A stretch of DNA of 49,897 nucleotides from an uncultured Phycisphaeraceae bacterium. Lineage in GTDB: Bacteria > Planctomycetota > Phycisphaerae > Phycisphaerales > UBA1924. Below are positions 6,315-24,802 of this stretch, piece after piece. The position numbers and the translations under genes are program-made. The stretch's first letter is position 1; every line of letters begins with the position of its first letter. A model generated the notes under the pieces. It saw only the letters and a program-made list of their open reading frames with translations. It did not search any database and had not been told where the DNA came from. Location of the stretch: the NCBI GenBank assembly GCA_964540295.1, contig CAZIMT010000001.1, forward strand, positions 15,913 through 65,809, given 5' to 3'.

Positions 6315-7727
6315 ATGACCGCACACCCGAGTCTTCAGAAGTACACCGTGTGGGGGCTGGACCCGATCCAGCTGCACGCGCGGTTCTGGGCCTCACGCGG
6401 CGTGCAGATCGTGCGTCCCGGCGAGCTGACGGAGATCGTCCCCCACGCGGAACTTTTTCTGCTGCTCGACCCGCGCATGCTCACGGTCTTCCGCCTCGCG
6501 GCGATCCTCGACACGCTCAGTTGGCTCGAACCGGAGCTTACGACGGTGCGGGTGCGCGACGCCGCACGCGAAGGGTACCGCGAGCATGTGGTGACCAACG
6601 CGAGCGGGCGGTTCGTGCGTTTCAAGCGTGTGTACCACGGCTCGGACCCTCGTATGGCGCGGGTGGGCCTGACCTCGGATCGCGAACTGGCGCGGCTCTG
6701 GCAGGGGACGCTCGACGCCAAGGCCGGGTGGGCCCAGCTCCGGCGTTACGTGCGGAAGTCCGCCCGGTACACCGCGACGTTGAAGGGCAGAGTCTTCGAC
6801 GCCACACACCCTGAAGAGATCGCGGGCTTCACCCGCGAGTTGCTCCAGCAATGGACACGCCCCGACGCCACGGTGTCGCGTGTCCGTCAGGTCGGCGACC
6901 GAATCTGGGCGGATGATTCGGCCAAGGTGGCCCCGGGCCCGGGCATCCGCGGCCCGCTCTGGATCGGCGCGGGCCGAGACCTGGCCGCCGGGGCCACGGC
7001 GATCGGGCCCTCGGTGATGTGGGACGCGCCCGGCCAGCGGCCCGAAGACAAGGGTATCAAGTGGCTCGAACTCGAACCGTTGTCACAGCCGATCCCGCAG
7101 ATCGCGCGGCGAAAACTCGCGCCCTCGCGCGGGATCAAGCGGGCGTTCGATATCGCCTTCTCGCTCGTCGCGCTCTTCTTCACGCTCCCTCTTTACCCGA
7201 TCCTTGCCGCGGCGATCGTGATCGAGGACGGGTTCCCCGTCTTCTTCCGGCACCGCCGCGAGACCATGGGCGGACAAGAGTTCGGATGCCTCAAGTTTCG
7301 ATCGATGCGCAACGACGCGGAAAAAATGAAGGCCCAGCTCGTGGGCAAGAATCAGGCGGACGGCCCGCAGTTCTTCATGAAAGACGATCCCAGGAACACC
7401 AGGGTCGGCAAGCTGCTACGCGACCTGCAGCTCGACGAGCTGCCTCAGTTCATCAACGTCCTCCGCGGCGACATGTCCGTCGTCGGTCCCAGGCCCAGCC
7501 CGTTCAAAGAGAACCAGTATTGCCCGCCCTGGCGCGAGGCTCGGCTGAGCGTGCGCCCGGGGCTTACCGGGCTCTGGCAGATCAGCCGCACTCGGGCCGA
7601 GGGAACGGACTTTCAGGAGTGGATCAAGTTTGACATCGAATACGTCGAGCGTCAGTCGTTCTTCTTTGACCTGTGGATCATCTGGAGAACCGTCGCGATG
7701 CTGGTGCGGAGGCTCACACGCTCGTGA
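6315..7727 (+). CDS. Priming polyprenyl-phosphate sugar-phosphate transferase (bacterial sugar transferase family) with a soluble N-terminal extension of about 270 aa
   Basis: The C-terminal 200 aa match the family: KRAFDIAFSLVALFFTLPLYPILAAAIVIEDGFPVFFRHRR, GCLKFRSMRNDAE, DDPRNTRVGKLLRDLQLDELPQFINVLRGDMSVVGPRP and RPGLTGLWQI. I saw no hydrophobic segment in the first roughly 270 aa. Confidence 0.85.
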   Translation: MTAHPSLQKYTVWGLDPIQLHARFWASRGVQIVRPGELTEIVPHAELFLLLDPRMLTVFRLAAILDTLSWLEPELTTVRVRDAAREGYREHVVTNASGRFVRFKRVYHGSDPRMARVGLTSDRELARLWQGTLDAKAGWAQLRRYVRKSARYTATLKGRVFDATHPEEIAGFTRELLQQWTRPDATVSRVRQVGDRIWADDSAKVAPGPGIRGPLWIGAGRDLAAGATAIGPSVMWDAPGQRPEDKGIKWLELEPLSQPIPQIARRKLAPSRGIKRAFDIAFSLVALFFTLPLYPILAAAIVIEDGFPVFFRHRRETMGGQEFGCLKFRSMRNDAEKMKAQLVGKNQADGPQFFMKDDPRNTRVGKLLRDLQLDELPQFINVLRGDMSVVGPRPSPFKENQYCPPWREARLSVRPGLTGLWQISRTRAEGTDFQEWIKFDIEYVERQSFFFDLWIIWRTVAMLVRRLTRS

Positions 7728-7751: not shown

Positions 7752-7779
7752 ATGAGAATGAACATATGAGAATGAACCC
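7752..7779 (+). repeat. Tandem 14-bp duplication of the TPR-gene start region that creates a 5-codon upstream mini-ORF
   Basis: ATGAGAATGAACAT (7752-7765) is followed directly by ATGAGAATGAACCC (7766-7779), identical at 12 of 14 positions. The first copy reads ATG AGA ATG AAC ATA TGA (MRMNI*). Its stop (7767-7769) overlaps the ATG at 7766 of the 1568-aa ORF, which itself starts MRMN. Confidence 0.8.
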
Positions 7780-10700
7780 GAAGACGGCCCGACGGTTGCT
7801 CCTCATCGCCGCCGTGGTGGTGGTTGTGGTCGCGTCTCTTGTGAGCGTGTTCGTCGTCCGCACGTGGCAGATCACACGCCGCGCCGACGCCCTGAGGTCG
7901 CAAGGGCTGGACCACTTCGAGAAGAAGGAGTACGCCAGCACGCTCGACAAGCTCGGGCCCTACCTCCGCGTCCTGGCTCACCAGACCGACCGACAGGCCT
8001 TGATCGTCTACGGCAAGGCGCGCGAAGCCATCGAGGAAGGAAATCTCCGCCATATCCGCGAGTCCATCGCCGTGTACCGCACGGCCTTCGAGCTCGATCC
8101 CACCGACCACGCGACCGGGCTCACCCTCCTCCGTCACTACAACACCATCGGCTTCAGCCCCGAGGCACGCGATCTGGCGGTCCGCCTGCGCCCCGCAAAT
8201 CTCTCGGACACGACCGCGCGAGATCTCGAAGCATTACGCGGGGAAGTGACCGCGCGGATCGTGCTCAAGGCCTACGACGCTCAACTCGACAAACTCCTCG
8301 GCCGCATCATCGAGCTGGCGCCCGACGACTTTGGAGCGCACCTGACCTGGATCCACGCTCTGCGTCAGACCGGCAGGCCCGAAGCCGCGGTGGTCCACAC
8401 CCGGGACATCGTTCAAAGGTTCAACACCGATCCACGATTCCAGTACATCGAGGCCATCGCGAAGCTCGACGATTCAGGCTCGCAGAACGGGAGCGTGGAT
8501 GCGTTCTTCAAGAGTCTGTGTACGCTCAGCGGGCTGGACCCTCAAAGCGCGGAGCGGCGTGAGGCGGTCACCTATACCGACCCCATGTTCATCGCGCGGC
8601 TCATCGGCTCGTTCGACGCGACCTTCCATTCCCCGCATTCGCTGGCGGTTCTTCGAGAGGCCTCGGCCCGCATCCCCGACGCGGACCTTCTTCGCGCGTT
8701 CGTCCGTCGCGCGTGGCAGGCGGGCTCCCACCAGGAAGTCGTCGACCGGCTCGCGTCGAACAACGCCCCCATATCCGGGACTCACTCAGAATTACTCGCG
8801 TTCAAGGCGATGAGCCTCACTCAGCTGGGGAGGGGGAACGAACTCGCGGCCATCGTCGAAGAGCTCAAGCGCCGGCGCGACGACTTCCGCGCGCGAGCTT
8901 GGGCGCTGGCGCTGGACAAGTTCACCGACACGAGCGTCGCCGGCCGGGTAGCGTCCGTGAAGAATCTTCAGGCCGCGCAGCGTGAAGACCCCTCCGAGCC
9001 GATCCTCGCATTCGCACTGGGCGAGGCGCTGGTCGCCCTGGATCGCACGGAAGAAGCACGCGAGCAGTGGCAGCTCGCGACGACCTCCCCGCTCTCTAAT
9101 GGCTGGGCCGCGCCACACTCACGCAACTCGGCGACGCTGGTGGGGCAAGGCAGGCTCGACGAGGCGTTGCGTGCGGCCGAGCGAAGCCGACAGATCTCGC
9201 CCGGAGACCCGGTGACGAACATCGCGCTGCTCGGTGCCAAGCTCGCCATGATCGAAGCGGGGTATCGTCCTCAAGAAGACCCTCAGGCCATGCTCGCGCA
9301 GATCGAGCGTGCTCTCGCGCAGACCGCCCGCGTCGCCGACGACAAAGCCTCCCGCGGTTTGCGCGAAGTGCTGATCCCCGGTCGTGTCCTGCTGCTGGCG
9401 TATATGGGTGACGCCGAGGGCGCGAGTTCAGCCCTTAAAGAGGAGCTCGACCGAACCCCGCCAGCCGATCCGAGCGTGCTGGCGCACTTGGCGCTCATCT
9501 CAGGCAGCTACAAGCTCGGGCACCAGTACGAGTGTCTTGATCTGGCGCAGAAGCTGAGCCCCAGCGACCCGGTGCTCGGACTGACTCGTGCGCTCTTGTT
9601 GCACCGCGACGGGAAGACCGAGGAGGGCTCGCGGTCCATCACGGCCGCGGCCGCACAGTCGGACCCGTCGCAATCCAAGGGCTGGAAGATCGCGGAGGCT
9701 CGTTACCTCGACTCCATCAACAGCGAGCGATCACTTCCGAATTGGATCGACCTAGCCGACGCCAACCCCGAGGACCTTCAGGTGCAGCTCGCGGCCATCG
9801 AGTCGCGCGCGGCATCCGCGGACCTGGCGTTCGTGGACCGAGTCGGCCAGCGAGTCGCGCGCCTAGGCGGGTCGGACTCGCAGCGTCCCACCATCACCGG
9901 CCGACTCGCACGCGTCCGCGCGATCCTCGCCTCGGACGTCACCAAGGACCGGCGCGACGAAGTTCTCTCACTCATCCGGAGCGTCACCAACGAAGCGCCC
10001 GACCTCCTCGAGCCCAGGCGGCTCATGGTTCAGGCCCTTCTGCTGGAAAACCCGGAGCGTGGGATCAAACCTGACTTCTCGGCCGCCGTCGAACAGCTCA
10101 AAGCGCTCTCGCAGATCGTGCCCGATCGATCAACGGTCTCGCTTCAGATCGCCCAGATCTATCAACGGCAGCGCGATCGAGACCGCGCACGCGACGAACT
10201 CAACCGAGTGCTCAGCGACGCATCAGCACCGCGGGCAGCGCGCGAGCGGGCCTTGGAGATGCTCCTGGCGCAACGCGAGTATGCGGCCGCGATCCCCTCG
10301 TTGCAGGCGGACGTCTCGGCCGCGGGGAAGGACGCCCCACCAGCGATGCTCCTGAACCTCGCGACAGCGCTGCGCGGATCGCGCCGCACGGATGAGGCTC
10401 TCACCGTGTTCCGTCGGCTTGCCGCGGGTCCGATCTCAAACGGCGAGCAAGTGTTCAGCATCGCGGACGGGCTGGCCACATGCGGCGATCGTTCCGAGGC
10501 CGTCGCCGTGATCGCCAAAGTCGATGCCCTCAAGCAGGAGCCCGGCGTCGCCGAGTGGATCCGAGGCCGATTCGAGGCTCGCCACGGAGACCCAACTGCG
10601 GCCGCGGCTCTGCTCGAGCGGTCGGTCGAGCTTGGCCCCAAGTCATCCGCCTTGTGGCATGATCTCGTCACGCTCCACCTGTCGCGGCGCGACTTTGCCA

Positions 10701-12472
10701 AGGCTCGGGACGCGGTGGAGCGCGGGCTCAAGAGCGTTCCCGAGAGCCAGGAATTAGCTGTGCTGCAGCAACAGGTTGCGATCGGCGCGGACGGCGAGAG
10801 TGCGAGCCTTGCGGCGCTCATCGAAACTCTCTCAAAGGATCCACGAAACGGCGATCGAGTTGCCGGGCTCAAGGCGGTCGAAGACGCGCGAGTACGCGGC
10901 CAACTCAGCGACGTGAAGTCGCTCTCGGAGTTGGCCTCCAAGTTCCCCGACGACGCGGGCGTGCAGGCTGTCGTGCTGCGTTCGTTGCTAGATCTCAGAC
11001 CGCCGCGGCTCGACTTGGCGGTGAATATCGCGAAGCGTTCTCAGGCTTCCTTCCCAGATTCCCCGGGGATTGCTCGCCTCTCGGTCGCGGCTTTCCGCGC
11101 TTCGGGTGATTGGACCAGGATGCAGGCCGCCGCTCTCGCATGGGAGCAGGCCGCAGGGTCCGTCGAGTCACGCCTAGCCCTGGCCGAGGCCGAGCTTCGC
11201 GGCGGGCGTGCGTCGCGCGCGATGAACTCGATCCTCCCCTTGATCGAGAGCGCCAAGGCCGCTCCTGACGAGTCGATCAACGCGAGCGTGCTCGAACTCG
11301 CGTGCCGGGCGATGATCGACCTCGACCGCGAGCCAGATGCGTTCGCGATCTTGTCGCCCCTTCTTGCCGGATCGAGCGCGGTGCGATCCAAGGTCTGGCC
11401 GGGGCTCGTTGCGTCCGCGATCAAGACCGGTGCCGCGGCCGAGCGATGGTCAAACCATCTTCTCGGCGTCGCCAAGCAAGACGACGCGACGGCCCGCGAA
11501 GCGATCGCGGGCGCGTGCCTCGACGCCGCGCAGCGCACTCCCGATCGGAAAACCGAACTGCTCAACCTCGCCAAGAGTGTGCTGAGCAAGCTGGCCGCCG
11601 CGTCTGCTCCCAGCGATATGGTGCTCGCGCGGCTCGGGCTTGCGCAGCAGATGCTGGGCGAGTCGCAGGCCGCGGCCGCGTCGTACCGTCGTGCCCTCGA
11701 AATCAATCCCAAGTCCGCCACAGCGATGAGCAACCTCACCGACCTCGCGATCGCGGGCGGCGCGGACCTCAACGAAACGCTGGCCGCCGCAGAGCGGGCT
11801 GTCGCCGCGGGCGAGGCTCAAGATGGGATGGTCCTGTTCGCGCTCGCAAAGCTCCAGACCGCCAAGGCCGAGGACACGAGCGGCGAGGCGGCCGGTGCCG
11901 AGCGTGAGAACCTGCGGAAGGCGCTCGCCAGCTACCGGTCGGCGCTGTCCCTGATCCCCGATCAGTTTGAGATCGCGCTCCGGGCGGGAGATCTTTACGG
12001 TCGTTTGGGAGACCAGGCGGCCGCTCTGGAGATGTTTGATCGCGTCCTGCTCACGCCGAATCTCGCTCCCCAAGTTGAGTCGATGGCGCAGAACAACGCC
12101 GCGTTCGCGCTGCTCCAGCTCAAACGAAACACCTCGGACCTGTCCCGGGCACGCGATCTCGCAAGGTCGGCCGTGAAGACCCAGGAGAATGCCAGCTTCC
12201 TCGACACGCTCGGCCAAGTCGAACTCGCCGTCGGGGACCGCCCGCAAGCTCAGGCCGCGTTCCGTCGCGCGCTGCAGTTAGAGCCCGCACTCGGCTCGTC
12301 TTTGCTCGGACTCGCCGCGGCGCTTCAGGGAGGAACGGACGTCGAGCGCACCGAAGCCTCCCAGGTTCTCGCTCGGGCAGAAAGCTTGCTCCTCACTCGC
12401 CCTCAGGAATACTCGGCGGAAGAGCGAGCGGCGATCAAGGCGTTACGTGCAAAGCTCTCTCAGGCAAACTGA
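7766..12472 (+). CDS. Giant membrane-anchored TPR-repeat protein (PrsT-like role in exosortase loci)
   Basis: A 1568-aa ORF with an N-terminal TM anchor (LLLIAAVVVVVVASLVSVFVV). The remainder is Ala/Leu-rich helical-repeat sequence with many TPR-like units, for example AAASYRRALEINPKSATAMSNL and AQAAFRRALQLEPALGSSLLGLA. It lies in the exosortase operon, and a hairpin plus T-run terminator follows it. Confidence 0.8.
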   Translation: MRMNPKTARRLLLIAAVVVVVVASLVSVFVVRTWQITRRADALRSQGLDHFEKKEYASTLDKLGPYLRVLAHQTDRQALIVYGKAREAIEEGNLRHIRESIAVYRTAFELDPTDHATGLTLLRHYNTIGFSPEARDLAVRLRPANLSDTTARDLEALRGEVTARIVLKAYDAQLDKLLGRIIELAPDDFGAHLTWIHALRQTGRPEAAVVHTRDIVQRFNTDPRFQYIEAIAKLDDSGSQNGSVDAFFKSLCTLSGLDPQSAERREAVTYTDPMFIARLIGSFDATFHSPHSLAVLREASARIPDADLLRAFVRRAWQAGSHQEVVDRLASNNAPISGTHSELLAFKAMSLTQLGRGNELAAIVEELKRRRDDFRARAWALALDKFTDTSVAGRVASVKNLQAAQREDPSEPILAFALGEALVALDRTEEAREQWQLATTSPLSNGWAAPHSRNSATLVGQGRLDEALRAAERSRQISPGDPVTNIALLGAKLAMIEAGYRPQEDPQAMLAQIERALAQTARVADDKASRGLREVLIPGRVLLLAYMGDAEGASSALKEELDRTPPADPSVLAHLALISGSYKLGHQYECLDLAQKLSPSDPVLGLTRALLLHRDGKTEEGSRSITAAAAQSDPSQSKGWKIAEARYLDSINSERSLPNWIDLADANPEDLQVQLAAIESRAASADLAFVDRVGQRVARLGGSDSQRPTITGRLARVRAILASDVTKDRRDEVLSLIRSVTNEAPDLLEPRRLMVQALLLENPERGIKPDFSAAVEQLKALSQIVPDRSTVSLQIAQIYQRQRDRDRARDELNRVLSDASAPRAARERALEMLLAQREYAAAIPSLQADVSAAGKDAPPAMLLNLATALRGSRRTDEALTVFRRLAAGPISNGEQVFSIADGLATCGDRSEAVAVIAKVDALKQEPGVAEWIRGRFEARHGDPTAAAALLERSVELGPKSSALWHDLVTLHLSRRDFAKARDAVERGLKSVPESQELAVLQQQVAIGADGESASLAALIETLSKDPRNGDRVAGLKAVEDARVRGQLSDVKSLSELASKFPDDAGVQAVVLRSLLDLRPPRLDLAVNIAKRSQASFPDSPGIARLSVAAFRASGDWTRMQAAALAWEQAAGSVESRLALAEAELRGGRASRAMNSILPLIESAKAAPDESINASVLELACRAMIDLDREPDAFAILSPLLAGSSAVRSKVWPGLVASAIKTGAAAERWSNHLLGVAKQDDATAREAIAGACLDAAQRTPDRKTELLNLAKSVLSKLAAASAPSDMVLARLGLAQQMLGESQAAAASYRRALEINPKSATAMSNLTDLAIAGGADLNETLAAAERAVAAGEAQDGMVLFALAKLQTAKAEDTSGEAAGAERENLRKALASYRSALSLIPDQFEIALRAGDLYGRLGDQAAALEMFDRVLLTPNLAPQVESMAQNNAAFALLQLKRNTSDLSRARDLARSAVKTQENASFLDTLGQVELAVGDRPQAQAAFRRALQLEPALGSSLLGLAAALQGGTDVERTEASQVLARAESLLLTRPQEYSAEERAAIKALRAKLSQAN

Positions 12473-12502
12473 CCGACTGATAGCCTCTAGATTAACACCT
12501 CA

Positions 12503-12531
12503 CCACGGCCCTGCGGCCGTGGTTTCTTTTT
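12503..12531 (+). terminator. Rho-independent terminator after the TPR gene
   Basis: CCACGGCC (12503-12510), loop CTGC, then GGCCGTGG (12515-12522) form a perfect 8-bp GC-rich stem. TTTCTTTTT follows directly, 31 nt after the stop at 12472. Confidence 0.65.
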
Positions 12532-12924
12532 GGACGACCGGGAAGCCTGTCAAGCCCTCGGGGGCAACGCCGATCGTAGCTCGCGTGGCTCGCGTCGAGC
12601 TAAAATAACTCCTAACAAAAATTTGCATTCGTGTCACGTCAATTTTGGCCATTCTGGCCGGAATTTTCTTGTAGATTCTGAAGTCACTCCCTGAACAGGG
12701 TAAAATCCCTTAAGTTGGAGCGCGCTGAGCCTTCCACCTGCCGTCTTCCTTTAAAAGAAGGAGCGTTCGGGCTGATCGGTTTAGCGCAGCAGAGAACGTT
12801 TGACGCACTGATTGAGTGGCCCGGGGCCGGTCGGATGGACTTGGCTCTTCGCGGTCATCAAAGCCAGTCTGTCTATGGTTCGCGATGTTTGGTTTATATT
12901 TGGATTGGTTGCAGAGAAGAGGCG

Positions 12925-13629
12925 ATGAAGAAGCTGCTCGAAAATGTCACCCGGACGGTTCTCGGGCCTCAGACCTTGGCTCTGGTCGGCTTGGTGATGT
13001 GGGCCTTGGTCGGTTCCGCAGCGTTGGCGGGCACCACCTCGATTGAAATGAAGAACGCTATCTTCCCGAGCCTTCGCGGCCCGAGTTTTCGCCCGCTTGC
13101 AGCGCCGCGTTCTCAAGGCTCGCTTTCGGAAATCTTTGCGGAGTCTCCCGCGAAGTTTGAGGGCGTCACGAGCCTCGGGCGAGGCGAAGTTGAGACCAAC
13201 GATTTTGGCGCGATGCTTTGGGCAGGCCGAGATGGCGGGGAGGACGAGTTGGGCACGCAGATCCCCTATCTCTCCGAGAAGTTCATCACCCACGCTCTCA
13301 TCGGTTCGGAGATCCGCGGCCTGGTGCTCCTTGATCGGAGCGCGGCCTCGGGTCAGTCTCGAGTACGGCTTGTCGAACTCAGTCTCGAGGCGGAGAAGTC
13401 GGCCAGCGAGACGAACTCAACCAAGGGCTCGAACTCATCGCTGGTCGACGGTTCTCGGAACCGGGGGTTTGTTCAAGCGGCCAACGTGTATTCTCTCGGT
13501 GTGACACGTAACGATTTTCAGAACTCGTTCGTCTACGTTCCGCTGCCGCCAGCCACCCATATCGGCGTGTTGGCTCTAGGAATGATCGGGCTGGGTCATG
13601 TTCGTCGGAACCATCGCCACAAGGCTTAG
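12925..13629 (+). CDS. Secreted protein with a VPLPPA-type exosortase (PEP-CTERM-like) C-terminal sorting signal (cargo 1)
   Basis: ATG 12925 lies inside ORF 12715..13629, which opens with TTG. The N-terminus is signal-peptide-like (MKKLLENVTRTVLGPQTLALVGLVMWALVGSAALAG). The C-terminus is VYVPLPPATHIGVLALGMIGLGHVRRNHRHKA, which gives a motif (VPLP at 13537-13548), a hydrophobic helix and a basic tail. Confidence 0.7.
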   Translation: MKKLLENVTRTVLGPQTLALVGLVMWALVGSAALAGTTSIEMKNAIFPSLRGPSFRPLAAPRSQGSLSEIFAESPAKFEGVTSLGRGEVETNDFGAMLWAGRDGGEDELGTQIPYLSEKFITHALIGSEIRGLVLLDRSAASGQSRVRLVELSLEAEKSASETNSTKGSNSSLVDGSRNRGFVQAANVYSLGVTRNDFQNSFVYVPLPPATHIGVLALGMIGLGHVRRNHRHKA

Positions 13630-14016
13630 CGTTATTGTTCTTTGTTTGTGCTTGATCTTGCTTGGACGTGCTCGTGATTCATCGAGTTCTCGGAGCTGCT
13701 TTGTGAATGAGGGCGTCAGATATTTCTCGGCGAAACGTACACTGGTAAGTTTTTTGTCTTTACGGGAACTGCAAAGAACTGCCTGCGAAAAGGCTGAGAC
13801 TTTGGAGAGTTTGATGCTGATTTTGCTTGGGACAATCTACCCAGATCGCCAAGGGAAAAAACCCTTGGACCTTGCATTCTTCGTCGATTGATGCATAGTT
13901 CGTATGTCTTGACTCAGATGGCTTTGAATCGGTTGGGTCTGGTAAGAAAACCTGTCAAAAAAGTGATCGTTCTTCTCGATTTTGGACGCGTTTGAGTGTA
14001 TCATACTTCGTAGCTC

Positions 14017-14030
14017 TAACCGATCGGTTA
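14017..14030. repeat. Perfect 14-bp palindrome TAACCGATCGGTTA in the leader of cargo gene 2 (candidate operator)
   Basis: The sequence reads identically on both strands and lies 142 nt upstream of the ATG at 14172, in an AT-rich intergenic region. The half-site-like ATCGGTT also occurs at 13928-13934, and GATCGGTT occurs at 12774-12781. Existence is certain; function is unproven. Confidence 0.4.
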
Positions 14031-14171
14031 CGACTCTTCTGAAGAACTGATCGAGGTCCGAGCTGGTTTTGAGTAATAGTTCTCGGCGTGAAGACTTTTT
14101 TAAAAACAGACCGCAAGGTCGGTGGCGTCAGGAAGACGTTCACAAGAGATGAGCAAGAGGAGATTTGAGAG

Positions 14172-14837
14172 ATGAAGAATTCTGTGTTGTTGTCAGCAGT
14201 AGGGTTGGCCTTGGTGGCGAGTAGCGCGGCGTCAGCCGCTACGATTCGCATGGACCTTTCCACTCACCCGGCCAACGGGATGCGCGGTCAGTACACGGCC
14301 ACGGTGCTCAGCGGGTTCGCGGGCATCATCGACGTGACCGGGGTCGGGTCGAGCTTCGACACGTTCTGCCTCGAGAAGAACGAGTTCTTCATTCCCGGCC
14401 AGAACTACTCCGCAACGCTCGACGTCGCGGCCCGCAACGGCGGCGTGTCGGGCGGCTCGAACGGTGCGGACCCGATTAGCCCCGCGACCGCGTACCTCTA
14501 CACGCAGTTCCGGGATGGCAATCTCGGTTTCAGCAGCTTCACGAACTCCAGCGACTCCGAAGCCCTTCAAGATGCCCTCTGGTTTCTCGAAGGTGAGATC
14601 TTCTCGGTCTCCGGGCAGGCCCAGACGCTTGTCAACCAGGCGCTCGCGGCTGGGTGGACAGACATCGGCAACGTTCGCGTCCTCAACATTATCGGGCCGA
14701 ACGGTTCCTCGGGCAACGGCAGCGCGCAAAGCCAGCTCGCCATGGTTCCTCTCCCCGCCGCCGCTTGGGCAGGGATCGCCGGGCTCGGTGGTGTGATCGC
14801 CCACAACATCCGCCGTCGCCGGGCTCTGAACGCCTAA
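14172..14837 (+). CDS. Secreted protein with a VPLPAA-type exosortase C-terminal sorting signal (cargo 2), carrying thioester-domain-like Cys/Gln motifs
   Basis: A strong RBS (AAGAGGAGA) precedes the ATG. The signal peptide is MKNSVLLSAVGLALVASSAASAA. The C-terminus is LAMVPLPAAAWAGIAGLGGVIAHNIRRRRALNA (VPLP at 14745-14756). Internal motifs are TFC66LE (Cys codon 14367-14369) and ALQ133DALW (Gln codon 14568-14570). Confidence 0.8.
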   Translation: MKNSVLLSAVGLALVASSAASAATIRMDLSTHPANGMRGQYTATVLSGFAGIIDVTGVGSSFDTFCLEKNEFFIPGQNYSATLDVAARNGGVSGGSNGADPISPATAYLYTQFRDGNLGFSSFTNSSDSEALQDALWFLEGEIFSVSGQAQTLVNQALAAGWTDIGNVRVLNIIGPNGSSGNGSAQSQLAMVPLPAAAWAGIAGLGGVIAHNIRRRRALNA

Positions 14838-15184
14838 TCGTTCGATCTGAGCCCTTTTAGGGCCAGATCACGCCTAGTACAGACTCAGCAAATGACAGCT
14901 TTCCACGATCGCTCCGGGCCTACCCGGGGCGATTTTCATTGTCTCAACCACTTTTTGCATCAGGGGGTGGCGCGTGCGAACAGATTCTGTACCATCATCA
15001 TTGGTAACGACTAGGTTGGAGTCTGGCGGGGACGGCGTTGCATTTGGGTGATCTGGCTTTTCTTCAGCGGCCGGGATAGGCCTCGAGTGAGGCACGAGAA
15101 CGCAGTCTCGCGTGGTCTCAGGAGTTTGGCCCGCTGGCGAAAGGCTCTCGTGGAGGGATGTGGGTGAGCGGATGGGAATTGACC

Positions 15185-16162
15185 ATGCCACGAATGTTGA
15201 CGGCGGTCGCGATCGCGATGACGCTCGTCTGGCCGCGGTGCTGTGACGCTCGCGAAGACTTCGTGAGCGCTCGGTACATCGGTCCTACAGACGGTTACAC
15301 GCGGAAGATCGCGATCCAGATCGAGCAGTCCTCGATCTACAGTGGCATCGTCGATGTTGGACCGATTGACTATCAGTTTTTCGGCCCCGCGGACGGGACC
15401 GGTCGTTCGCTGGTCGGTGCTGTAATGCCCACGTTCGGCGTGGAGGTGGAGACCCCGCTCCAGAGCGAGCGCCGTTACACGCTGACTGAGATCGCGTTCG
15501 GACCCGAGCCGGTGGTGACGAATCTGGCGAGCCCGGGCCATTACGGTCAACGGCGTCAATCGCTCGTCCACGCGGTGGTCGGCGCGGCGATCCAGCTCGG
15601 TTGGCTGCGTCTCGACGGCACGATCCAAGATTCACTCAATGACAACCTGAACCGAGATCGGATGGCGGCGGTGCAGTTGTTGGTGTGGGAGTCAGTGTTC
15701 GAAACGCGCGAGGCACCAGAGCGGTGGAGTTTGGCGGACGGGAGCTTCACGGCTTCAATGGGCCAGACTCCGGGCGTGAAGATGGAACTGGTGACTCTCG
15801 CGGAGCACGCGACGACGATGCTGGAAGGGAACCTTCGCGTCGAGGGCCTGCGGACGATGACCACTAGGGATTCGCAGGACCGGCTGGTGATCGTGAGGAC
15901 GCCGGAGCGTACACGAAGGCTGGTTCGCCGCGTCAATGGCGCGGCCGAGTACTTCGACAGTTCTGACACGAGTTCTCTGGATCCGAACGCGGCTATTCAG
16001 GGCCCGACCCCAGGGTCGCCCAACTCGGGCGGGTTCACGGTGTTCTCGCCGCCCCCGTTCCCGCCCACGTCGAACGTGGTGCCGCTGCCGCCAGCGGTCT
16101 GGCCCGGCATCGCTGCGATTATCCTCGTGGCTCTTTACCAGAGCCGAAAGCGTGCGGCCTGA
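15185..16162 (+). CDS. Secreted protein with a VPLPPA-type exosortase C-terminal sorting signal (cargo 3), a Cys-less paralog of cargo 2
   Basis: The ORF is 15158..16162. ATG 15185 gives the signal-like N-terminus MPRMLTAVAIAMTLVWPRCCDA, but the start is uncertain (15158, 15185 or 15194). The C-terminus is SNVVPLPPAVWPGIAAIILVALYQSRKRAA (VPLP at 16079-16090). TFGVEVE and AVQLLVWE align with TFCLEKN and ALQDALWF of cargo 2. Confidence 0.7.
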   Translation: MPRMLTAVAIAMTLVWPRCCDAREDFVSARYIGPTDGYTRKIAIQIEQSSIYSGIVDVGPIDYQFFGPADGTGRSLVGAVMPTFGVEVETPLQSERRYTLTEIAFGPEPVVTNLASPGHYGQRRQSLVHAVVGAAIQLGWLRLDGTIQDSLNDNLNRDRMAAVQLLVWESVFETREAPERWSLADGSFTASMGQTPGVKMELVTLAEHATTMLEGNLRVEGLRTMTTRDSQDRLVIVRTPERTRRLVRRVNGAAEYFDSSDTSSLDPNAAIQGPTPGSPNSGGFTVFSPPPFPPTSNVVPLPPAVWPGIAAIILVALYQSRKRAA

Positions 16163-16216: not shown

Positions 16217-16822
16217 ATGAACAATTCCACTTCTGCTTGCATGGTCGCTCTTGCGGTTCTTGGTTTCGGGATCGCGATTGGCGGGTGCAAGGGGCGTGCG
16301 GCCACGGTTCGCGAGACGGTCTCGGCGGTTGACGTCAATTCACGCGATTCTCGACAGCAGACGCCTCTTCACCTGGCCGCGCTCGCCGATGACGCCGACG
16401 AGGTGCGTCAGTTGGTGTCGCGTGGGGCGGTGATCGACGCGCTCGACCGCAAAAACCGCACGCCGCTGCACTCGGCGTGCGCCAAGGAACGAGTGAAGGC
16501 CGCCAGGGCGCTGATCGAGCTGGGCGCGAGCCTGAGCGTTCGTGACGACGACGGTAGCGTGCCGCTGCACTTCGCGGCCAGCAAGGGGCTTCCGGAGATC
16601 GCGCGAGCGATGCTGGACCGCAAGGCGGAGATCGACGTTCAGAACAAGCGCGGGTTCACGCCGTTGCACTACGCGGTGTTCGAGAACGAGATCGAGATGG
16701 TGCGAGTGTTGCTCGCGGCCGGGGCGGACACGACGGCTCGAGACAAGGACGGACGCACGGTGAGAGACTTGGCGGTGGTTAAGAAGCGTACGGCGATTCT
16801 GCCGCTGTTGCCGGGAAGTTAA
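16217..16822 (+). CDS. Ankyrin-repeat lipoprotein
   Basis: Signal peptide with a lipobox-like GIAIGGC. It has 4-5 ankyrin repeats, including QQTPLHLAALADDADEVRQLVSRGAVIDA, NRTPLHSACAKERVKAARALIELGASL, GSVPLHFAASKGLPEIARAMLDRKAEIDV and GFTPLHYAVFENEIEMVRVLLAAGADTT. Confidence 0.85.
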   Translation: MNNSTSACMVALAVLGFGIAIGGCKGRAATVRETVSAVDVNSRDSRQQTPLHLAALADDADEVRQLVSRGAVIDALDRKNRTPLHSACAKERVKAARALIELGASLSVRDDDGSVPLHFAASKGLPEIARAMLDRKAEIDVQNKRGFTPLHYAVFENEIEMVRVLLAAGADTTARDKDGRTVRDLAVVKKRTAILPLLPGS

Positions 16823-18582: not shown

Positions 18583-21138
18583 CTATCGCCGCGCTCGCAT
18601 CGCCGCCCACAGGCTCAGGGGCCAGACGCCCGCGAGCATGACCAGCACGCACACGATAAGCCCGACGTTGATGAGCGTTCCCAGCGAGCGCACGGCGGGG
18701 ACGCTCGTGAGCACGAGCGAGCCGAAGCCGAGGATGGTGGTACTAGCGCAGACGATCATGGCGGTACAGCCGGGCGAAAACTGCCGGAGCAGCGTGCGCA
18801 GGTCGGGGCGGTTCTGGACGAGCGACGCGGCGAAGACGCCATAGTCGACGGTGATCCCCATCAAGAGCGGGAGCATGACGAGGTTAACCAAGTTGATCCG
18901 TTGCCCGACCAGCCGCATGAACACGAGCAGGCCGAGCAGGCTGATGATCGCGGGAGCGGCGGCGATCAGAGCAAGCCGCAGAGACCGGAAATGAACGAGC
19001 AGGAAGATCAAGATGGCAAGCATCGCCACGGCGAGCAGCGTCGGGACCTCGTGCTGGATCGCGGCCTCGACATCGTGGGTGATCGCAACGGTGCCGGTGA
19101 CGGAAACGCCGTCGAGGCCGGTAAGCGAATCGCGGAGCGTGGAGAGCAGATCCTCGCGTGCGGCGTGGGATTCGACCGGCGCGGCGAGCACTACGGTGAC
19201 GAGGCTCTCCGTCGCGGGTGCGCCAGCGAGGGCCGCATAGGGGAGGAGCATGCGACCGACCGACGAGTAGCGCGACAGATCGGCGATCGTTGGCGGCGGA
19301 CCGGGCGTGAGCAGTTGGCTCAGGAATGTTGAATACGCGGCGAACGCGCTGGCGCGGAACGCGCTTGACTCTGCCGCCGTTTGGAAATCGCTGGTCACCC
19401 GTCCGGCCCAGGCAGGATCGATCTCGTGAGCGCGAGCGGCGGCGCGATCCGGATCAGGAAGGAACGACGCGAGGCTGAACGAGCCGCGCACGCCGACGGA
19501 TTCCATGCGCTGGCTGGAGAGACGTTCGCGGACGCGGTGCGCGAGCCGAAGTAAGTCATCGGAAGAATCGGCGCGGAGGTGGATGAGCACCGAGTCGGCG
19601 GGGAGGCCCATCCGTCGCGTGATCTCGCGCTGCGCATCGAGCGGCGGGTTGGGTCTGGGGTGGAGCGAGGTCAGTTCTGAGTCCACGTTGGGCCGAGCAC
19701 CGCCCGCGACCCATGCCGTGATGACGAGCGCGGACGCGATGGCCGTGAGCGTGACGAGCGTACGGCTGTGTCTGGTCAGCCACACGGCGAGAGACCTTGG
19801 GGCGACCCATCGCGCGGTGACGGCCTTGGATTGCCAGCCGATTCGATCGAGAAAGATCAGGGCCGCGGGCAGCACGACGAGCGTGGCGAGCCAGCACGCG
19901 AGCAGGCTGATCGATCCGATGACCGCAAAGTCGCGGAGCACCCGCACGGGCGAGAACACGATCGCCGCTAGCCCGATGACCGAGGTGATGCACGCGGCGA
20001 ACATGGGAGCCTTCATGTGCGTGATCGTGAACGCCGCGGATTCGGCCGATGTGTGTCCGCGTCGGCGTGCTTGTTCGTAGTGGGCGAGGAAGTGGATGGA
20101 GTAGTCGATGCCGATGCCGCTGAGCGTGCCGCCGACAACGGCCGCGAGCGGGGTGATGCTGGGGGTAAACGCGGCGTACGCGCCGAAGCCGCAGACGAGG
20201 CCGAGCGTGACGGGGAGCATCGCGAGCAGGAAGATCCGGATCGGCTTGCGATAGAGCACGGCGAAGAGGACAACGAACGAGACGAGCGAAGAGGAGATGC
20301 CGAGGATCGAATCAGAGCGGATCGCTCCGACGTTGTAGGCGGCGATGGCGTACGCGCCAGCGAACGAGACCTTGAGCGTGCCGGGGTCGGCCTTGTTGAC
20401 GCACGTTGCGACCAGCGCGGTGAGATCGCGGCAGAACTGAAGATCATCGGGACCTTTAAGGCCGGTGACGCGGATTAGCAGGGCGCGGCCGTCGGTCGAG
20501 AGCAGGAGGCCGTCGTTGCCGAACTGATCGGCGGCGAGCGCGAGGGCGGACTGGCTGAGCGTGGCGCGGAGGAACTCGTGAAGTCGAAGCGGGTCTTTGA
20601 GAATCGCCTTTCCCAGGCCTTCGGAGCCCGGGCCCGGGACTGTGAGCACGGCCTTGCTGCGCGCGAGCTGGGCCCGCATTCCTCCCGGCGTGAGTCGCTC
20701 TTTCAACTCGGTGAAGACGGAAGAGTCGAGGTAGTACAGGCCACCCGGCACGACGACGCGCTCGAAGAACTCGCGTGTTTCCGGGTCGGTACGAAATCCA
20801 ACGCTGGCGACGAGCGTGCCCGCGTTCGGCTGCGCATCGATCGCGGAGCGGAGCCTCTCTGCAAAGGCCACGAGGGGCGCGGGGTCGTTGGACGTCGCCT
20901 CGGGCGAGAGTTCGGCGAAGACGAGCAGATCGTTCACCACGGGAAAGTCGTGCATCACACGGCTCATCGCGGCGACGCTCGGGTCGCGCGCGTCGAGCAA
21001 TTTTTGGAGTGACGCTTCGGGGCGCAGCCGCAGCATGGACAGGCCCGCGATGAGCGTGACCAGCGCGGCCAGCGTGAGCACGAGGGCCGGTCGTCGTACA
21101 ACGAACGGCAGCGGCGTGGGCGGACGAAGTGCGTTCAT
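18583..21138 (-). CDS. MMPL/RND-superfamily exporter
   Basis: An 851-aa protein with two blocks of about 6 TM helices, each preceded by a large soluble loop. This is the MMPL/HpnN-like architecture. The start ATG overlaps the stop of the upstream lipoprotein gene (ATGA on the minus strand, 21135-21138). Confidence 0.85.
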   Translation of the reverse strand: MNALRPPTPLPFVVRRPALVLTLAALVTLIAGLSMLRLRPEASLQKLLDARDPSVAAMSRVMHDFPVVNDLLVFAELSPEATSNDPAPLVAFAERLRSAIDAQPNAGTLVASVGFRTDPETREFFERVVVPGGLYYLDSSVFTELKERLTPGGMRAQLARSKAVLTVPGPGSEGLGKAILKDPLRLHEFLRATLSQSALALAADQFGNDGLLLSTDGRALLIRVTGLKGPDDLQFCRDLTALVATCVNKADPGTLKVSFAGAYAIAAYNVGAIRSDSILGISSSLVSFVVLFAVLYRKPIRIFLLAMLPVTLGLVCGFGAYAAFTPSITPLAAVVGGTLSGIGIDYSIHFLAHYEQARRRGHTSAESAAFTITHMKAPMFAACITSVIGLAAIVFSPVRVLRDFAVIGSISLLACWLATLVVLPAALIFLDRIGWQSKAVTARWVAPRSLAVWLTRHSRTLVTLTAIASALVITAWVAGGARPNVDSELTSLHPRPNPPLDAQREITRRMGLPADSVLIHLRADSSDDLLRLAHRVRERLSSQRMESVGVRGSFSLASFLPDPDRAAARAHEIDPAWAGRVTSDFQTAAESSAFRASAFAAYSTFLSQLLTPGPPPTIADLSRYSSVGRMLLPYAALAGAPATESLVTVVLAAPVESHAAREDLLSTLRDSLTGLDGVSVTGTVAITHDVEAAIQHEVPTLLAVAMLAILIFLLVHFRSLRLALIAAAPAIISLLGLLVFMRLVGQRINLVNLVMLPLLMGITVDYGVFAASLVQNRPDLRTLLRQFSPGCTAMIVCASTTILGFGSLVLTSVPAVRSLGTLINVGLIVCVLVMLAGVWPLSLWAAMRARR

Positions 21139-21950
21139 GGCAGCTTCCGCGCCCGAAACGGCGGCGTGAATGCGGACTCCGGCGCCGCGTTGACGCTGAG
21201 GGTGCGGGTGATGATTGTCATCCGGCCCGAGCTGCTGACGGCGTGGATCTCAAGCGGCCAGGTGACGCCTTCGAGTTCGTGATAGTCCATCATTTCCAGC
21301 GAGAACACGCTCTTGCCGGTTGGATCGATGACGTCGGCTCGCGTGGTTGTGAGCGTTGATCGCGCGACGACGGTGCGGAGGACTCGACCCGCGGCGAGCG
21401 ATCGCGTTGTGATGAGCGTGTCGCCCATCACCATCGGCGGCGCGACCTCGGTCGCCTTCGCGTCCGCGCGCTCGCGCACAATGTCGTTCGGAACAGCGCG
21501 ACCCCACAGCACAGCCATCCAGTCGGGTAAGGCTTCGGATGTTCTCGCGAGCGAATCCGAGAGTGGCGAGGGAGCTTCGTTTGGCTGGTTGCTCGTGGGC
21601 GTTGTGGCGGTCGGTTCTTCGGCGGAATAGAGCCAAACTCCTTCGGGAACGACGGTGAGATCGAAGACGGCCTGGCCGAGCTTCCAGGCTCGCACGCGAG
21701 CGCGATCGGGTGGCTGCATGACGTACGCCGCTTCGAACCGCACGTTGCCGTGCGTCGGATCGTCGAGCACGAGTTCGCCGCGGCCTGAGAGCGTGCGGAT
21801 CTGCGCCATCCGGTTCTGCATGGTCGCGATGGACGCTCGAGCGTCCGTCGGCGCGTACGTTGGGAGCGGCTTTGAAACGCAGCCCGATAGGGGAGCGAGC
21901 GCGAGGATCGCGGTAACGCAGAGCGAGCCGGTCGTGTCGCGAAGGTTCAT
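21135..21950 (-). CDS. LolA/LolB-fold-like lipoprotein (outer-membrane lipoprotein-sorting-protein-like)
   Basis: ATG 21950 lies inside ORF 21135..22166 and overlaps the stop of the ligase gene by 4 nt. The lipobox is LAPLSGC. The sequence pattern is typical of LolB/DUF4292-like beta-barrel halves (IRTLSGRGELVLDD...VRFEAAYVMQPPDRARVRAW). The fold assignment is inferred, not proven. Confidence 0.55.
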   Translation of the reverse strand: MNLRDTTGSLCVTAILALAPLSGCVSKPLPTYAPTDARASIATMQNRMAQIRTLSGRGELVLDDPTHGNVRFEAAYVMQPPDRARVRAWKLGQAVFDLTVVPEGVWLYSAEEPTATTPTSNQPNEAPSPLSDSLARTSEALPDWMAVLWGRAVPNDIVRERADAKATEVAPPMVMGDTLITTRSLAAGRVLRTVVARSTLTTTRADVIDPTGKSVFSLEMMDYHELEGVTWPLEIHAVSSSGRMTIITRTLSVNAAPESAFTPPFRARKLP

Positions 21951-23464: not shown

Positions 23465-23467
23465 CGC

Positions 23468-24802
23468 TCACACGCTCGCGGCCAACTCTGGGTGTGCTCG
23501 CTCGTGCGTTCGTTCCGGCGACGGCGCGACAGGACGCTCACGCAGGAGTGAGAAGCTGCGCCGGTGCGGCACGAGCGGGACGTGCTCCTGGAGTTGTACG
23601 CAGACCTCGAAGAACTTGAGCCGCCAGCGGAGCGACCATACGGGCCTCGGGAAGACCTGCCCGGCGAGGATCGAGATGATCGCCGCGTGGACGCGCACCG
23701 GGCCGGTGCCGTTCATGAACAGTTCGCGGAACGAGTGCTTGTAGTACATTCGGATGAGATTCCAGAAGACCGAAGTGCTGCCCTTGATGAACGTTCGGTA
23801 CTGGTGCTGGGCACGCGAGGGCGAGATCGTGCCGCGGAACATGGCATCGGCGAGCGTCGCGGCGTGGTTACCTCCCATCATCGCGAGAGTCACGCCGGTC
23901 GAGAAGATTGGGTCGAGGAAACAGCCCGCGTCGCCGACCATAAAATAGCCGGGCCCGGCGAAGGGCTCGCAGGTGTAGCTGAAGTCCGACAGCACCCGGT
24001 TGTCCGTGCTGCCGACGGCGTTGCGCATGCGATGACGGACCACGGGGCAGCGTGCGATCGCCCACTGAAGGATCTTGTTGGCGGGCACGCCGAGCTCGCG
24101 CACGAAGGAGGGGCGCGTCACGAAGCCCACGCTGGTCTTGTCGGTGCCGATGCCGATGAGCCAGAACCACCCCTCGTCGCTCATGATGATCCCGGGGTGG
24201 CCGCCGTCCTCGCCTTCGAGACGCTCGACGCCGTCGAAGTGCTCAAAATACGCGACTTTCTGGAGTTCGGGCTCGTCAAACGTGCGGCGCTGGCCGAGGT
24301 GTCGGCCCACAACCGTGCCGTGCCCGCTGGCGTCGATAAGCAGTCGCCCATGAACCGGACCGCGGTCGGTGTCGATGGTGACGGCTCCATCGCGCAGCTC
24401 GCGGATCGCGCGTGCGGGTCGGTCCTCGAAGATCATCGCGCCAGCTTTGCGCGCCTCGTTGAGCAGCATCGCGTCAAAGTGCGAGCGTTCGACGTTGAAC
24501 ACCGGGAACCCGGGGAGAAGCCCGTCGGTGAAGCGGAATCGCCGCGTGTTGAAGTCGTCGCCGAAGCCGAACTCGGCACCGTACTTCGGAACGTGCGGGA
24601 GAGCGCGCACCGCCACTTCGAGCCCCAGTTCCTTGATCAGCGGCATGTTGCGGGGCAGGATCGACTCGCCGATGTGAAAGCGAGGGTGCTGGTCCTTCTC
24701 CAGCACGCAAACCCGGTAGCCGTCGCGCGCGAGGCGGAGTGCGGCGATGGAACCTGCCGGGCCGCCGCCAATCACGATGACGTCGTGCCGTTCGTGGGTC
24801 AT
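23468..24802 (-). CDS. FAD-dependent halogenase-like oxidoreductase
   Basis: HDVIVIGGGPAGSIAALRLA is the GxGxxG FAD fold. PRFHIGESILP is present. EGWFWLIG (24152-24169) corresponds to the flavin-halogenase WxWxIP motif, with Gly in place of Pro. MVGDAGCFLDPIFSTGV is the GD / FxDPxFSxGV motif. Confidence 0.75.
   Translation of the reverse strand: MTHERHDVIVIGGGPAGSIAALRLARDGYRVCVLEKDQHPRFHIGESILPRNMPLIKELGLEVAVRALPHVPKYGAEFGFGDDFNTRRFRFTDGLLPGFPVFNVERSHFDAMLLNEARKAGAMIFEDRPARAIRELRDGAVTIDTDRGPVHGRLLIDASGHGTVVGRHLGQRRTFDEPELQKVAYFEHFDGVERLEGEDGGHPGIIMSDEGWFWLIGIGTDKTSVGFVTRPSFVRELGVPANKILQWAIARCPVVRHRMRNAVGSTDNRVLSDFSYTCEPFAGPGYFMVGDAGCFLDPIFSTGVTLAMMGGNHAATLADAMFRGTISPSRAQHQYRTFIKGSTSVFWNLIRMYYKHSFRELFMNGTGPVRVHAAIISILAGQVFPRPVWSLRWRLKFFEVCVQLQEHVPLVPHRRSFSLLRERPVAPSPERTHERAHPELAASV

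Follow-up and report, generated by a model that had tools for sequence, protein, structure and literature searches.

Three secreted, apparently paralogous proteins with Pro-Leu-Pro tails as probable substrates of a Phycisphaerae exosortase, with a thioester-like domain predicted in one of them

Three genes lie in tandem on the + strand of this 49.9-kb stretch of DNA from an uncultured Phycisphaeraceae bacterium (the whole stretch is called the window here, and positions count from its first letter), and they encode secreted proteins whose C-termini look like sorting signals and which stand behind an operon that includes an exosortase. The locus raises two questions, namely which enzyme, if any, reads these C-termini, and to what kind of domain they are attached. 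Our answer to the first is that the three proteins, called cargos 1, 2 and 3 below, are probably exosortase-sorted substrates of a subtype specific to the Phycisphaerae; to the second, drawn from a predicted structure, that the domain of cargo 2 looks like a class I thioester domain. The genes and their tails are given below, where L001 denotes a syntenic relative from a public run, which serves as the reference for cargo identity and for dN/dS (the ratio of nonsynonymous to synonymous substitution rates).

12925-13629, + strand: cargo 1, 234 amino acids (aa), with a signal peptide, a degenerate thioester-domain-like region without Cys, and a VPLPPA tail; from its open reading frame (ORF) and a family hhalign comparison
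13537-13626, + strand: sorting tail of cargo 1, consisting of VPLPPA, THIGVLALGMIGLGHV and RRNHRHKA; from sequence and comparison with L001
14172-14837, + strand: cargo 2, 221 aa, with a signal peptide, a thioester-domain-like region at about residues 23-191, and a VPLPAA tail; from 160 homologues and AlphaFold2 (AF2)/Foldseek
14745-14834, + strand: sorting tail of cargo 2, consisting of VPLPAA, AWAGIAGLGGVIAHNI and RRRRALNA; from sequence and an AF2 helix at residues 196-220
15185-16162, + strand: cargo 3, 325 aa, with a signal peptide, then a thioester-domain-like region and, before its VPLPPA tail, some 65 aa of Pro-rich linker; from hhalign
16079-16159, + strand: sorting tail of cargo 3, consisting of VPLPPA, VWPGIAAIILVALY and QSRKRAA; from sequence

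A shared tripartite tail on these three + strand ORFs was the core of the original prediction, and the C-termini read exactly as it quoted them: cargo 1 ends in FVYVPLPPATHIGVLALGMIGLGHVRRNHRHKA (stop 13629), cargo 2 in LAMVPLPAAAWAGIAGLGGVIAHNIRRRRALNA (14837) and cargo 3 in SNVVPLPPAVWPGIAAIILVALYQSRKRAA (16162), with the VPLP codons starting at 13537, 14745 and 16079, again as predicted. Each tail sits at the extreme C-terminus and is made up of VPLP[PA]A, some 16-18 hydrophobic residues and an Arg/Lys cluster. Searched on the six-frame translation of the window, VPLP[PA]A has three matches, all of them the cargo tails, whereas 200 local shuffles of the window averaged 0.1 matches and never yielded more than 2; with 3 observed against 0.1 expected, a chance origin of the three is excluded. 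A loose six-frame scan of the window for tripartite tails found no other credible one. Between cargo 3 and cargo 1 the DNA that codes for VPLPPA is identical at 16/17 bases (repeat D5).

At the other end of each protein, gene starts were set from homologues at 12925 (P0241), 14172 (P0002/P0004) and 15185 (P0246), and an alternative start for cargo 3, ATG 15158, was ruled out by the homologue N-termini. Each protein then opens with a predicted Sec signal peptide, with the cut placed after MKKLLENVTRTVLGPQTLALVGLVMWALVGSAALA in cargo 1 (next residue G), after MKNSVLLSAVGLALVASSAASA in cargo 2 (next residue A) and after MPRMLTAVAIAMTLVWPRCCDA in cargo 3 (next residue R). The signal peptides, which had also been predicted for all three, were judged by inspection (charged start, hydrophobic core, small residues at -3/-1), and the N-termini of orthologues agree with them. 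The synteny of the three cargos is kept in L001, where cargo 2 is 80% identical and cargo 3 59% identical, each with a dN/dS of 0.17; cargo 1 is only 34% identical over the whole protein and keeps 20/31 residues of its tail by residue count, so that its tail is better conserved than its passenger. By these comparisons the three cargo genes are real and under constraint. Cargos 1 and 3 are lineage-restricted, the former with 5 representative homologues that all end in YVPLP[PQ]A and the latter with five that are all VPLP-tailed.

The relation of these tails to known signals can be followed in the cargo 2 family, for which all counts cover 120 listed of the 160 homologues. PEP-CTERM is defined as a tripartite C-terminal tail with a near-invariant Pro-Glu-Pro, found in the exosortase systems of exopolysaccharide loci (Haft 2006, PMC1569441). 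Nearly the whole cargo 2 family (119/120) ends in a PxP tail, with the two prolines kept in 120/120 and 119/120 members, and the residue between them is L in 36, E in 29, A in 29, V in 10 and T in 9. When Glu-type (VPEP) members were scanned singly, four passed TIGR02595 at 20.6-27.5 bits (cutoff 16) and six passed PF07589 at 27.6-31.9 bits (cutoff 20.7), and the VPLP tails occupy the same alignment columns as these threshold-passing PEP-CTERM tails of their homologues; the Leu-type family members scanned gave no match to PF07589 or TIGR02595. Across 55-56 Leu-type tails the signature is [VI]-P-L-P-[PASQT]-A-[AV]-[WL]-x-G, with the Gly present in 49/56, and the first basic pair follows PLP at a distance of 15-19 residues (median 18, 55 tails). 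Judged by alignment, the tail is this lineage's own version of PEP-CTERM, with Leu for Glu, and is missed by current hidden Markov models (HMMs).

Among the cargo 2 homologues P0024-P0119, the middle residue of PxP tracks the subfamily. Members with VPAPGA tails include some that are publicly labelled Sedimentisphaerales, and every one of the 27 Ala-type tails has its basic cluster at a spacing of 16 from the motif. Variation of this kind suggests that each lineage's exosortase may read its own flavour of tail.

The exosortase gene of the window lies 9.7 kb upstream of the cargo genes, in a row of genes that leads up to them:

25-906, + strand: WecG/TagA/CpsF-family glycosyltransferase (PF03808 190 bits; TIGR00696 134 bits, cutoff 69)
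1223-2305, + strand: conserved operon gene with a weak C-terminal hexapeptide-repeat-like stretch (family assignments all below cutoff)
2302-3180, + strand: exosortase, 292 aa, a polytopic membrane protein (PF09721 170.4 bits; TIGR02602 123.8 bits)
3219-3893, + strand: EpsI/DUF3485 exosortase-associated protein (PF11984 64.7 bits; TIGR02914 40.8 bits, cutoff 42.8)
3890-6235, + strand: Wzc-like chain-length determinant fused to a tyrosine autokinase (TIGR01007 99 bits; AAA_31 match)
6315-7727, + strand: polyprenyl-phosphate sugar phosphotransferase, the priming transferase for exopolysaccharide (PF02397 207 bits; TIGR03025 250.7 bits)
7766-12472, + strand: PrsT-like tetratricopeptide repeat (TPR) protein, 1568 aa, the last conserved operon gene (multiple TPR families)
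12502-12523, + strand: terminator-like hairpin after the TPR stop, with a stem of 9 pairs, 7 of them G-C, and then a T-run (consensus match only)

A scan of one genome per species yielded 526 stretches with relatives of this exosortase, and the best 80 loci, examined with 10 kb flanks and amounting to about 1.4 Mb, were compared. From the conserved gene at 1223-2305 to the TPR gene, with exosortase, EpsI, kinase and sugar transferase between them, the gene order is collinear in essentially every sufficiently long locus. The WecG-type gene is the first operon gene where present and stands 5' of the exosortase in most of the 80 loci; a homologue of the 1223-2305 gene is directly 5' of the exosortase in essentially all of them (tblastn); the EpsI gene is collinear across them; and the TPR gene is 3' of the sugar transferase in nearly all that reach that far. 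In the window the EpsI ORF opens at 3078, and its likely start is ATG 3219, which has GGGAG before it and an N-terminal signal anchor after it. From this conservation of gene order, the operon is a class-wide exosortase/exopolysaccharide operon of the Phycisphaerae. Spacers of 453, 543 and 348 bp stand before cargo genes 1, 2 and 3, and because these spacers and the hairpin separate them from the operon, the cargo genes are its neighbours and not its members.

Intergenic spacers of 348-543 bp are unusually long, and the G+C content of the cargo region (window 12001-14000 and spacers 12473-12924, 13630-14171 and 14838-15184) is 0.57-0.61 against 0.65-0.67 in the flanks. A promoter scan of the locus was uninformative, and Rfam and repeat scans of the long spacers gave no match beyond the VPLPPA-coding 17-mer shared by cargos 1 and 3. 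Just 55 bp past cargo 3 lies the gene of an ankyrin-repeat protein (16217-16822, + strand), whose N-terminus (...AIGGC) resembles a lipoprotein signal and which is absent from this position in the otherwise syntenic L001.

In the 80 loci, the ORF that comes next after the TPR gene ends in [VI]PLP or VPVP wherever it is complete and plausible and has a signal peptide. Those ending in [VI]PLP come from L001 (three ORFs), L037, L039, L040, L059, L062, L063, L077, L079 and L080, and the one ending in VPVP from L026; in 13 further loci the signal-peptide ORF after the TPR gene runs off the end of the locus. Linkage of tail and exosortase is seen in at least 11 related genomes, and nearly all credible tails in the 1.4 Mb stand at this post-TPR position. 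Pro-Leu-Pro, not Pro-Glu-Pro, is the motif of the three tails and of their orthologues, and related loci have it in their tails too; no VPEP tail was seen in the 80 loci. At least five of the passengers that carry the tail (L037, L039/L059/L063, L040, L062 and L026) are invisible to the cargo 2 profile; the window holds three copies of the tail, on apparent paralogues. Read across these loci, the tail is modular and carried by differing passengers. Positional homology, linkage, modularity and signature all point to sorting signals, and apart from the Glu these features are those of the PEP-CTERM definition (PMC1569441).

A small protein follows the TPR gene in the Tepidisphaerales-type loci L034, L039, L059 and L063 (at about 20070-20440), with 118-123 aa in L039, L059 and L063. 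Its tail reads [VI]PLP[SAP][GA][EA]WTG[LM] and then, in 3/4, xCLxGLAL, with a Cys inside the helix.

The enzyme itself passes the general exosortase models, with PF09721 and TIGR02602 scoring as listed above (cutoffs 25.7 and 105.55) and TIGR04178 at 46.7 bits (cutoff 23). None of the named subtypes A, B, C, D, H, J, N, Q, T, V, W and X, nor any cyanoexosortase, is reached at cutoff: XrtA (TIGR03109) scores 128.2 bits against a cutoff of 208, XrtD (TIGR04152) 114.6 against 400, and XrtW, V, B, C and others lower. More than 1195 exosortase homologues were found, typically of about 292 aa and 60-69% identical, and their public names are only "exosortase" or "exosortase/archaeosortase family protein". 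The best 80 of the 526 relatives come nearly all from Phycisphaerales, Tepidisphaerales and other Planctomycetota, and include Fontivita pretiosa, strain ZRK34 and a Mucisphaera metagenome-assembled genome. C190, R235 and H255 are invariant among 18 exosortase sequences of 60-100% identity, and as they match the Cys/Arg/His catalytic set proposed for the exosortase family (Haft preprint), they are candidate catalytic residues.

Among characterised systems the closest parallels are with PEP-CTERM/XrtA (PMC1569441), which likewise combines a tripartite tail with a signal peptide at the opposite end and places the exosortase within an exopolysaccharide operon with EpsI, a tyrosine kinase/chain-length determinant, a priming sugar transferase and a large TPR protein, and whose true PEP-CTERM tails are held by cargo 2 homologues in the same columns. 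Unlike in that system, Leu stands at the Glu position here and PF07589 and TIGR02595 are blind to the window tails, the enzyme falls short of the XrtA cutoff, and the partners score far below theirs: the TPR protein has XrtA/PEP-CTERM system PrsT as its best NCBIfam match at 83.5 bits (cutoff 312) and is 1568 aa long against a profile of 899, and the product of 3890-6235 has sub-threshold matches to the XrtA-associated TyrKin and ChnLen models. The enzyme is best described as an exosortase subtype without a name, belonging to a Phycisphaerae clade and paired, so far as the tails indicate, with a Leu-type signal.

The handling of the cargos can be sketched on this basis. Each would be exported by Sec through its N-terminal signal peptide and then held by the C-terminal helix, with the Arg/Lys cluster in the cytoplasm and [VI]PLPxAxWxG at the periplasmic face. 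The co-encoded exosortase, together with EpsI, would recognise this motif at the outer face of the inner membrane, with C190, R235 and H255 as the candidate catalytic residues. By analogy with PEP-CTERM/XrtA and PGF-CTERM/ArtA, the helix would be removed and the protein released, or re-anchored in, or transferred to an acceptor in, the envelope or polysaccharide matrix. The exosortase-substrate architecture claimed by the original prediction is supported by the exosortase locus upstream, by the homologues that pass PEP-CTERM models in the same columns, and by the recurring order of operon, TPR gene and tail.

Several points weigh against reading the cargos as substrates of this enzyme. Cargo 1 scores 10.1 bits on PF07589 and cargos 2 and 3 do not match it, TIGR02595 has no match to the window tails and TIGR03370 stays below its cutoff, and the view of related genomes extends to the 10 kb flanks. 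Moreover, cargo 2 homologues with VPLP tails in L003 and L004 (49% and 40% identity) have no exosortase within 10 kb, so that adjacency alone is no proof of the acting enzyme. As these homologues lie away from an exosortase, the enzyme probably serves a wider and dispersed set of substrates, of which the three cargos would not be the only ones; on this account, and because the cargo genes form separate transcription units behind the terminator-like hairpin, the earlier view of them as dedicated cargo is not supported.

It is unlikely, in our assessment, that the tails are ordinary C-terminal membrane anchors which leave the proteins unprocessed and tethered to the inner membrane, facing the periplasm. 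The failure of the tails to reach any curated sorting-domain cutoff would fit this, as would the AF2 model, in which the cargo 2 tail is a plain helix. A generic anchor, however, needs neither an invariant P-x-P nor [VI]PLPxAxWxG with the frequent Gly at its position 10; homologues have threshold-passing PEP-CTERM in the same columns; and the same tail recurs on undetectably related passengers right after the exosortase operon in many genomes.

We give little credence to the view that the tails are sorting signals for another enzyme encoded elsewhere, such as an exosortase paralogue or an intramembrane protease, with the adjacency incidental. The isolated VPLP-tailed homologues in L003 and L004 favour it, as does a gene for a 518-aa Rce1-like (PF02517) membrane protease in L004 (8251-9807), some 6 kb away from the homologue of cargo 2. 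Enzymes of the Rce1 type act on other C-terminal signals, and the position of this one is probably a coincidence. The cargo 2 tail also touches the MYXO-CTERM model, at only 14 bits (cutoff 20); signals of that type require an invariant Cys in the motif (Haft preprint), and since the tails have no Cys, MYXO-CTERM was rejected. Against another enzyme stands the recurrence of tail genes at one fixed post-TPR position across Phycisphaerae orders, where nearly all credible tails of the related loci are found, a pattern typical of functional linkage.

The original prediction had likened the motif to the VPLPA-CTERM variant, and here the resemblance stands whereas membership of the family does not. 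That the locus is a diverged true member of the VPLPA-CTERM/XrtD system (TIGR03370/TIGR04152) is very unlikely, for although VPLPAAAW is close to the VPLPA-CTERM signature (Val-Pro-Leu-Pro-Ala, a small residue and Trp), the homologue P0045 aligns with the full length of TIGR03370 (positions 1-25, 17.6 bits), 16/120 family members touch that model at E up to 10 and the exosortase matches the exosortase half of the XrtD model, TIGR03370 gives cargo 1 only 6.4 bits (cutoff 25.35) and cargos 2 and 3 none, the XrtD score is lower than that for XrtA, the operon partners best match XrtA-system models (PrsT, TyrKin, ChnLen and EpsB_2), and a 292-aa exosortase with EpsI as a separate gene, as in all 80 loci, differs from the EpsI-like fusion of XrtD. 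The XrtD enzyme is an exosortase fused to an EpsI-like domain, as the name and length (486) of its NCBIfam model also indicate. The spacing of 15-19 residues between PLP and the basic pair is a further point of difference from that system.

With sorting by the Phycisphaerae exosortase as the favoured reading, the question becomes what is sorted. The original prediction treated the three proteins as independent cargos; by profile comparison they appear to be paralogues within a single domain family. Profiles of the cargo 1 and cargo 2 families align over 205 columns (hhalign probability 99.7, E 2e-26). Cargo 3 aligns with the cargo 2 family over 27 columns at default settings (probability 78.6) and over 205 collinear columns in greedy mode (probability 86-89, E 5e-6 to 2.5e-7), where PTFGVE pairs with TFCLE, VQLLVW with LQDALW, GNLRVEGL with GNVRVLNL and SQDRLVIV with AQSQLAMV (cargo 3 first in each pair), and an insert of about 65 aa, Pro-rich, precedes the VPLP of cargo 3. 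From these alignments, the three cargos look like diverged, paralogous copies of a single domain some 170 aa long. The weaker evidence for cargo 3 counts against this, its hhalign probability being 79-89 and its AF2 model, built from 5 sequences, having a predicted local distance difference test score (pLDDT) of 43, for which reason that model was kept out of the fold search.

No Pfam or NCBIfam family covers the passenger domain of cargo 2, and consensus sequences of its family had no match in Pfam. NF038129 and other "PEP-CTERM protein" families matched many relatives, but only with the tail ends of the profiles, and because the matches are confined to the tail they are uninformative on the domain. 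For the fold search, cargo 2 was modelled with AF2 from 36 homologues (pLDDT 82, predicted template modelling score 0.77). In Foldseek against the PDB, the top six matches of this model are all Gram-positive thioester domains, namely chains of C. perfringens CpTIE (5A0G/5A0D) and S. pneumoniae PnTIE (5A0N), with probability 0.98-1.00, target-normalised template modelling scores (TM-scores) of 0.45-0.58 (TM-scores overall 0.44-0.58) and 9-13% sequence identity; the seventh has a probability of 0.03, and nothing beyond the top six exceeds 0.07. The predicted order of secondary-structure elements is that of the published thioester-domain topology, a beta-barrel plus a bundle of three helices, with helices at 104-114, 126-139 and 148-159, a strand at 61-64 before TFC66LE and another at 184-191.

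Three motifs define thioester domains: a strand carries [YFL]C-phi-zeta, the second helix TQxx-phi-W, and a late strand phi-Q-zeta-phi-phi. Among their residues, universal conservation is confined to the Cys and the late Gln (PMC4450167, PMC6194298). The corresponding positions in cargo 2 are these:

14367-14369, + strand: codon of Cys66 (TFCLE), the candidate thioester Cys and the only Cys in cargo 2; Cys in 119/120 homologues
14568-14582, + strand: codons of Q133-D-A-L-W137, a TQxx-phi-W-type motif in the second helix (126-139); Q in 119/120, W in 120/120
14727-14729, + strand: codon of Gln186 (AQSQL), the candidate thioester Gln in the last beta-strand (184-191); Q in 120/120

Counted over the 120 family members, the residues of the Cys motif are F (117), C (119), L/V/I (118) and E (116), and 90/120 have exactly one Cys after the signal peptide. 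The Thr of TQxx-phi-W is replaced by Leu in cargo 2 (LQ133DALW137). Gln186 is followed by D/S/E in 120/120, with L189 kept in 115/120, and the distance from Cys to Gln is 120 residues as against 129 in CpTIE. The model is confident in these blocks (pLDDT 91 at C66, 96 for the Q133 helix and 88 at Q186). Weak collinear matches to the Pfam thioester domain (TED, PF08341) occur in 6/120 members, with E from 0.0067 up; three scanned singly scored 14.4-15.6 bits, and in P0072 residues 64-142 align with profile positions 3-70, beginning at FCVE. TIGR03934 (TQXA) is weakly matched by P0068 (12.6 bits, cutoff 30.4). A single member of the 120, P0005 (L003 6618-7292), has Ser for Cys (TFSLIR) and keeps both Gln186 and a VPLPPG tail.

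As far as the model goes, then, the cargo 2 domain looks like a class I thioester domain. With the Cys66/Gln186 pair kept, cargo 2 could form an internal thioester; the bond would arise spontaneously and be attacked by an amine of a target, giving a covalent link. Because Gln186 is six residues before VPLP, the reactive domain would sit at the processed C-terminus. Cargo 1 has no Cys anywhere and Thr/Ser at the Cys position, and cargo 3 has Gly there and a Cys only in its signal peptide, so if the thioester reading is right only cargo 2 would be reactive and the other two would be non-reactive relatives.

There is evidence on the other side as well. The homology is read from a predicted structure and the TM-scores are moderate; Pfam TED never reaches its cutoff of 22 bits in the family and leaves the window's own cargo 2 protein unmatched; sequence searches against the PDB (profiles A2 and A5; P0068) returned no thioester domain, only chance matches such as insulin-degrading enzyme; and Gln186 is conserved in the Cys-less cargos 1 and 3, so that its conservation is not specific evidence for a thioester. 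All of this would suit a passenger that is only thioester-like and forms no thioester, its conserved Cys having another role, for instance in catalysis, in an intermolecular disulfide or in binding a metal or lipid, and we consider such a passenger a real but rather doubtful alternative. The low identity does not speak strongly for it, as known thioester domains share as little as 12% identity among themselves (PMC4450167); thioester domains are the only confident fold matches, the three motifs occur in the right order and secondary-structure context with similar spacing, and there is no conserved His or Asp hinting at a Cys protease.

The thioester reading implies a larger claim, which we regard as quite possible while stopping short of calling it probable: that diderms (Phycisphaerae and relatives in other lineages with VPEP or VPAP tails) own true thioester adhesins, which would bind covalently and be delivered or anchored by exosortase instead of sortase, with one reactive copy and two Cys-less paralogues here. 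The likeness to the class I TEDs of Gram-positive TIE adhesins (CpTIE 5A0G, PnTIE 5A0N, SfbI and Cpa; PMC4450167, PMC6194298) extends from the predicted barrel and three-helix fold, the three motifs and the single conserved Cys to secretion and a tripartite C-terminal sorting signal. Unlike those proteins, the cargos belong to a diderm planctomycete and bear an exosortase-type signal in place of LPXTG/sortase; they have no isopeptide or ester stalk, the cargo 2 domain abutting the sorting motif where TIE proteins have a long stalk and cargo 3 having a Pro-rich spacer; the Thr of TQ is Leu; the Pfam and NCBIfam models remain sub-threshold; and two of the three paralogues lack the Cys. In the literature to 2026, thioester domains are described as a feature of Firmicutes and Actinobacteria (PMC4450167, PMC6194298), and we found no description in the literature searched of the pairing of VPLP tail and exosortase clade, nor of thioester domains with exosortase signals or in Planctomycetota.

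Elsewhere in the window, a mostly - strand cluster at 18583-31681 looks like a pathway for an aryl-polyene pigment or lipid of the xanthomonadin or flexirubin type. It contains an MMPL exporter, an AMP-ligase, a Trp-halogenase-like flavoenzyme, an FkbO/Hyg5-type chorismatase and a double ketosynthase, along with an LpxL-type acyltransferase, a LolA-like protein (weak flexirubin LolA2 match) and an AGPAT-type acyltransferase, and its stretch between MMPL and chorismatase, both included, shows synteny with L001. At the C-terminus of a 415-aa protein (39567-40814, + strand) stands a GC-type dockerin domain (NF041540, scoring 38.2 bits against a cutoff of 29), an anchoring module distinct from the VPLP tail in the same genome. 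The 1298-aa protein at 32795-36691 (- strand) has at its N-terminus a PVC-type heme-binding domain with CxxCH (TIGR02604/TIGR02603, neither reaching its cutoff) and at its other end a SoxX-like cytochrome c.

The part of this account that concerns tail and enzyme is solid but incremental, as far as sequence can carry it, and the thioester part is more surprising and is built on prediction. If the former is true, the VPLP tail and the unnamed exosortase clade would be an unrecognised signal-enzyme pair: the clade of 526 stretches would have a cognate tail, [VI]PLPxAxWxG, that Pfam and NCBIfam miss, leaving its substrates labelled "hypothetical", and a dedicated pair of HMMs would recover the surface proteome of the Phycisphaerae. 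The presence of E, L, A, V or T at the middle of PxP within one family, by lineage, amounts to a natural experiment on how exosortases read their signals. Exosortase cargos are notorious, to our knowledge, for lacking any recognisable function. Should the thioester reading be true, cargo 2 and its relatives would be the first thioester-domain family outside Gram-positive bacteria, and theirs would be the first biochemical activity suggested for a class of exosortase cargo encoded beside its sorting operon. Its confirmation would extend covalent adhesion to environmental diderms and would hint at how proteins of the polysaccharide matrix could be cross-linked to their targets.

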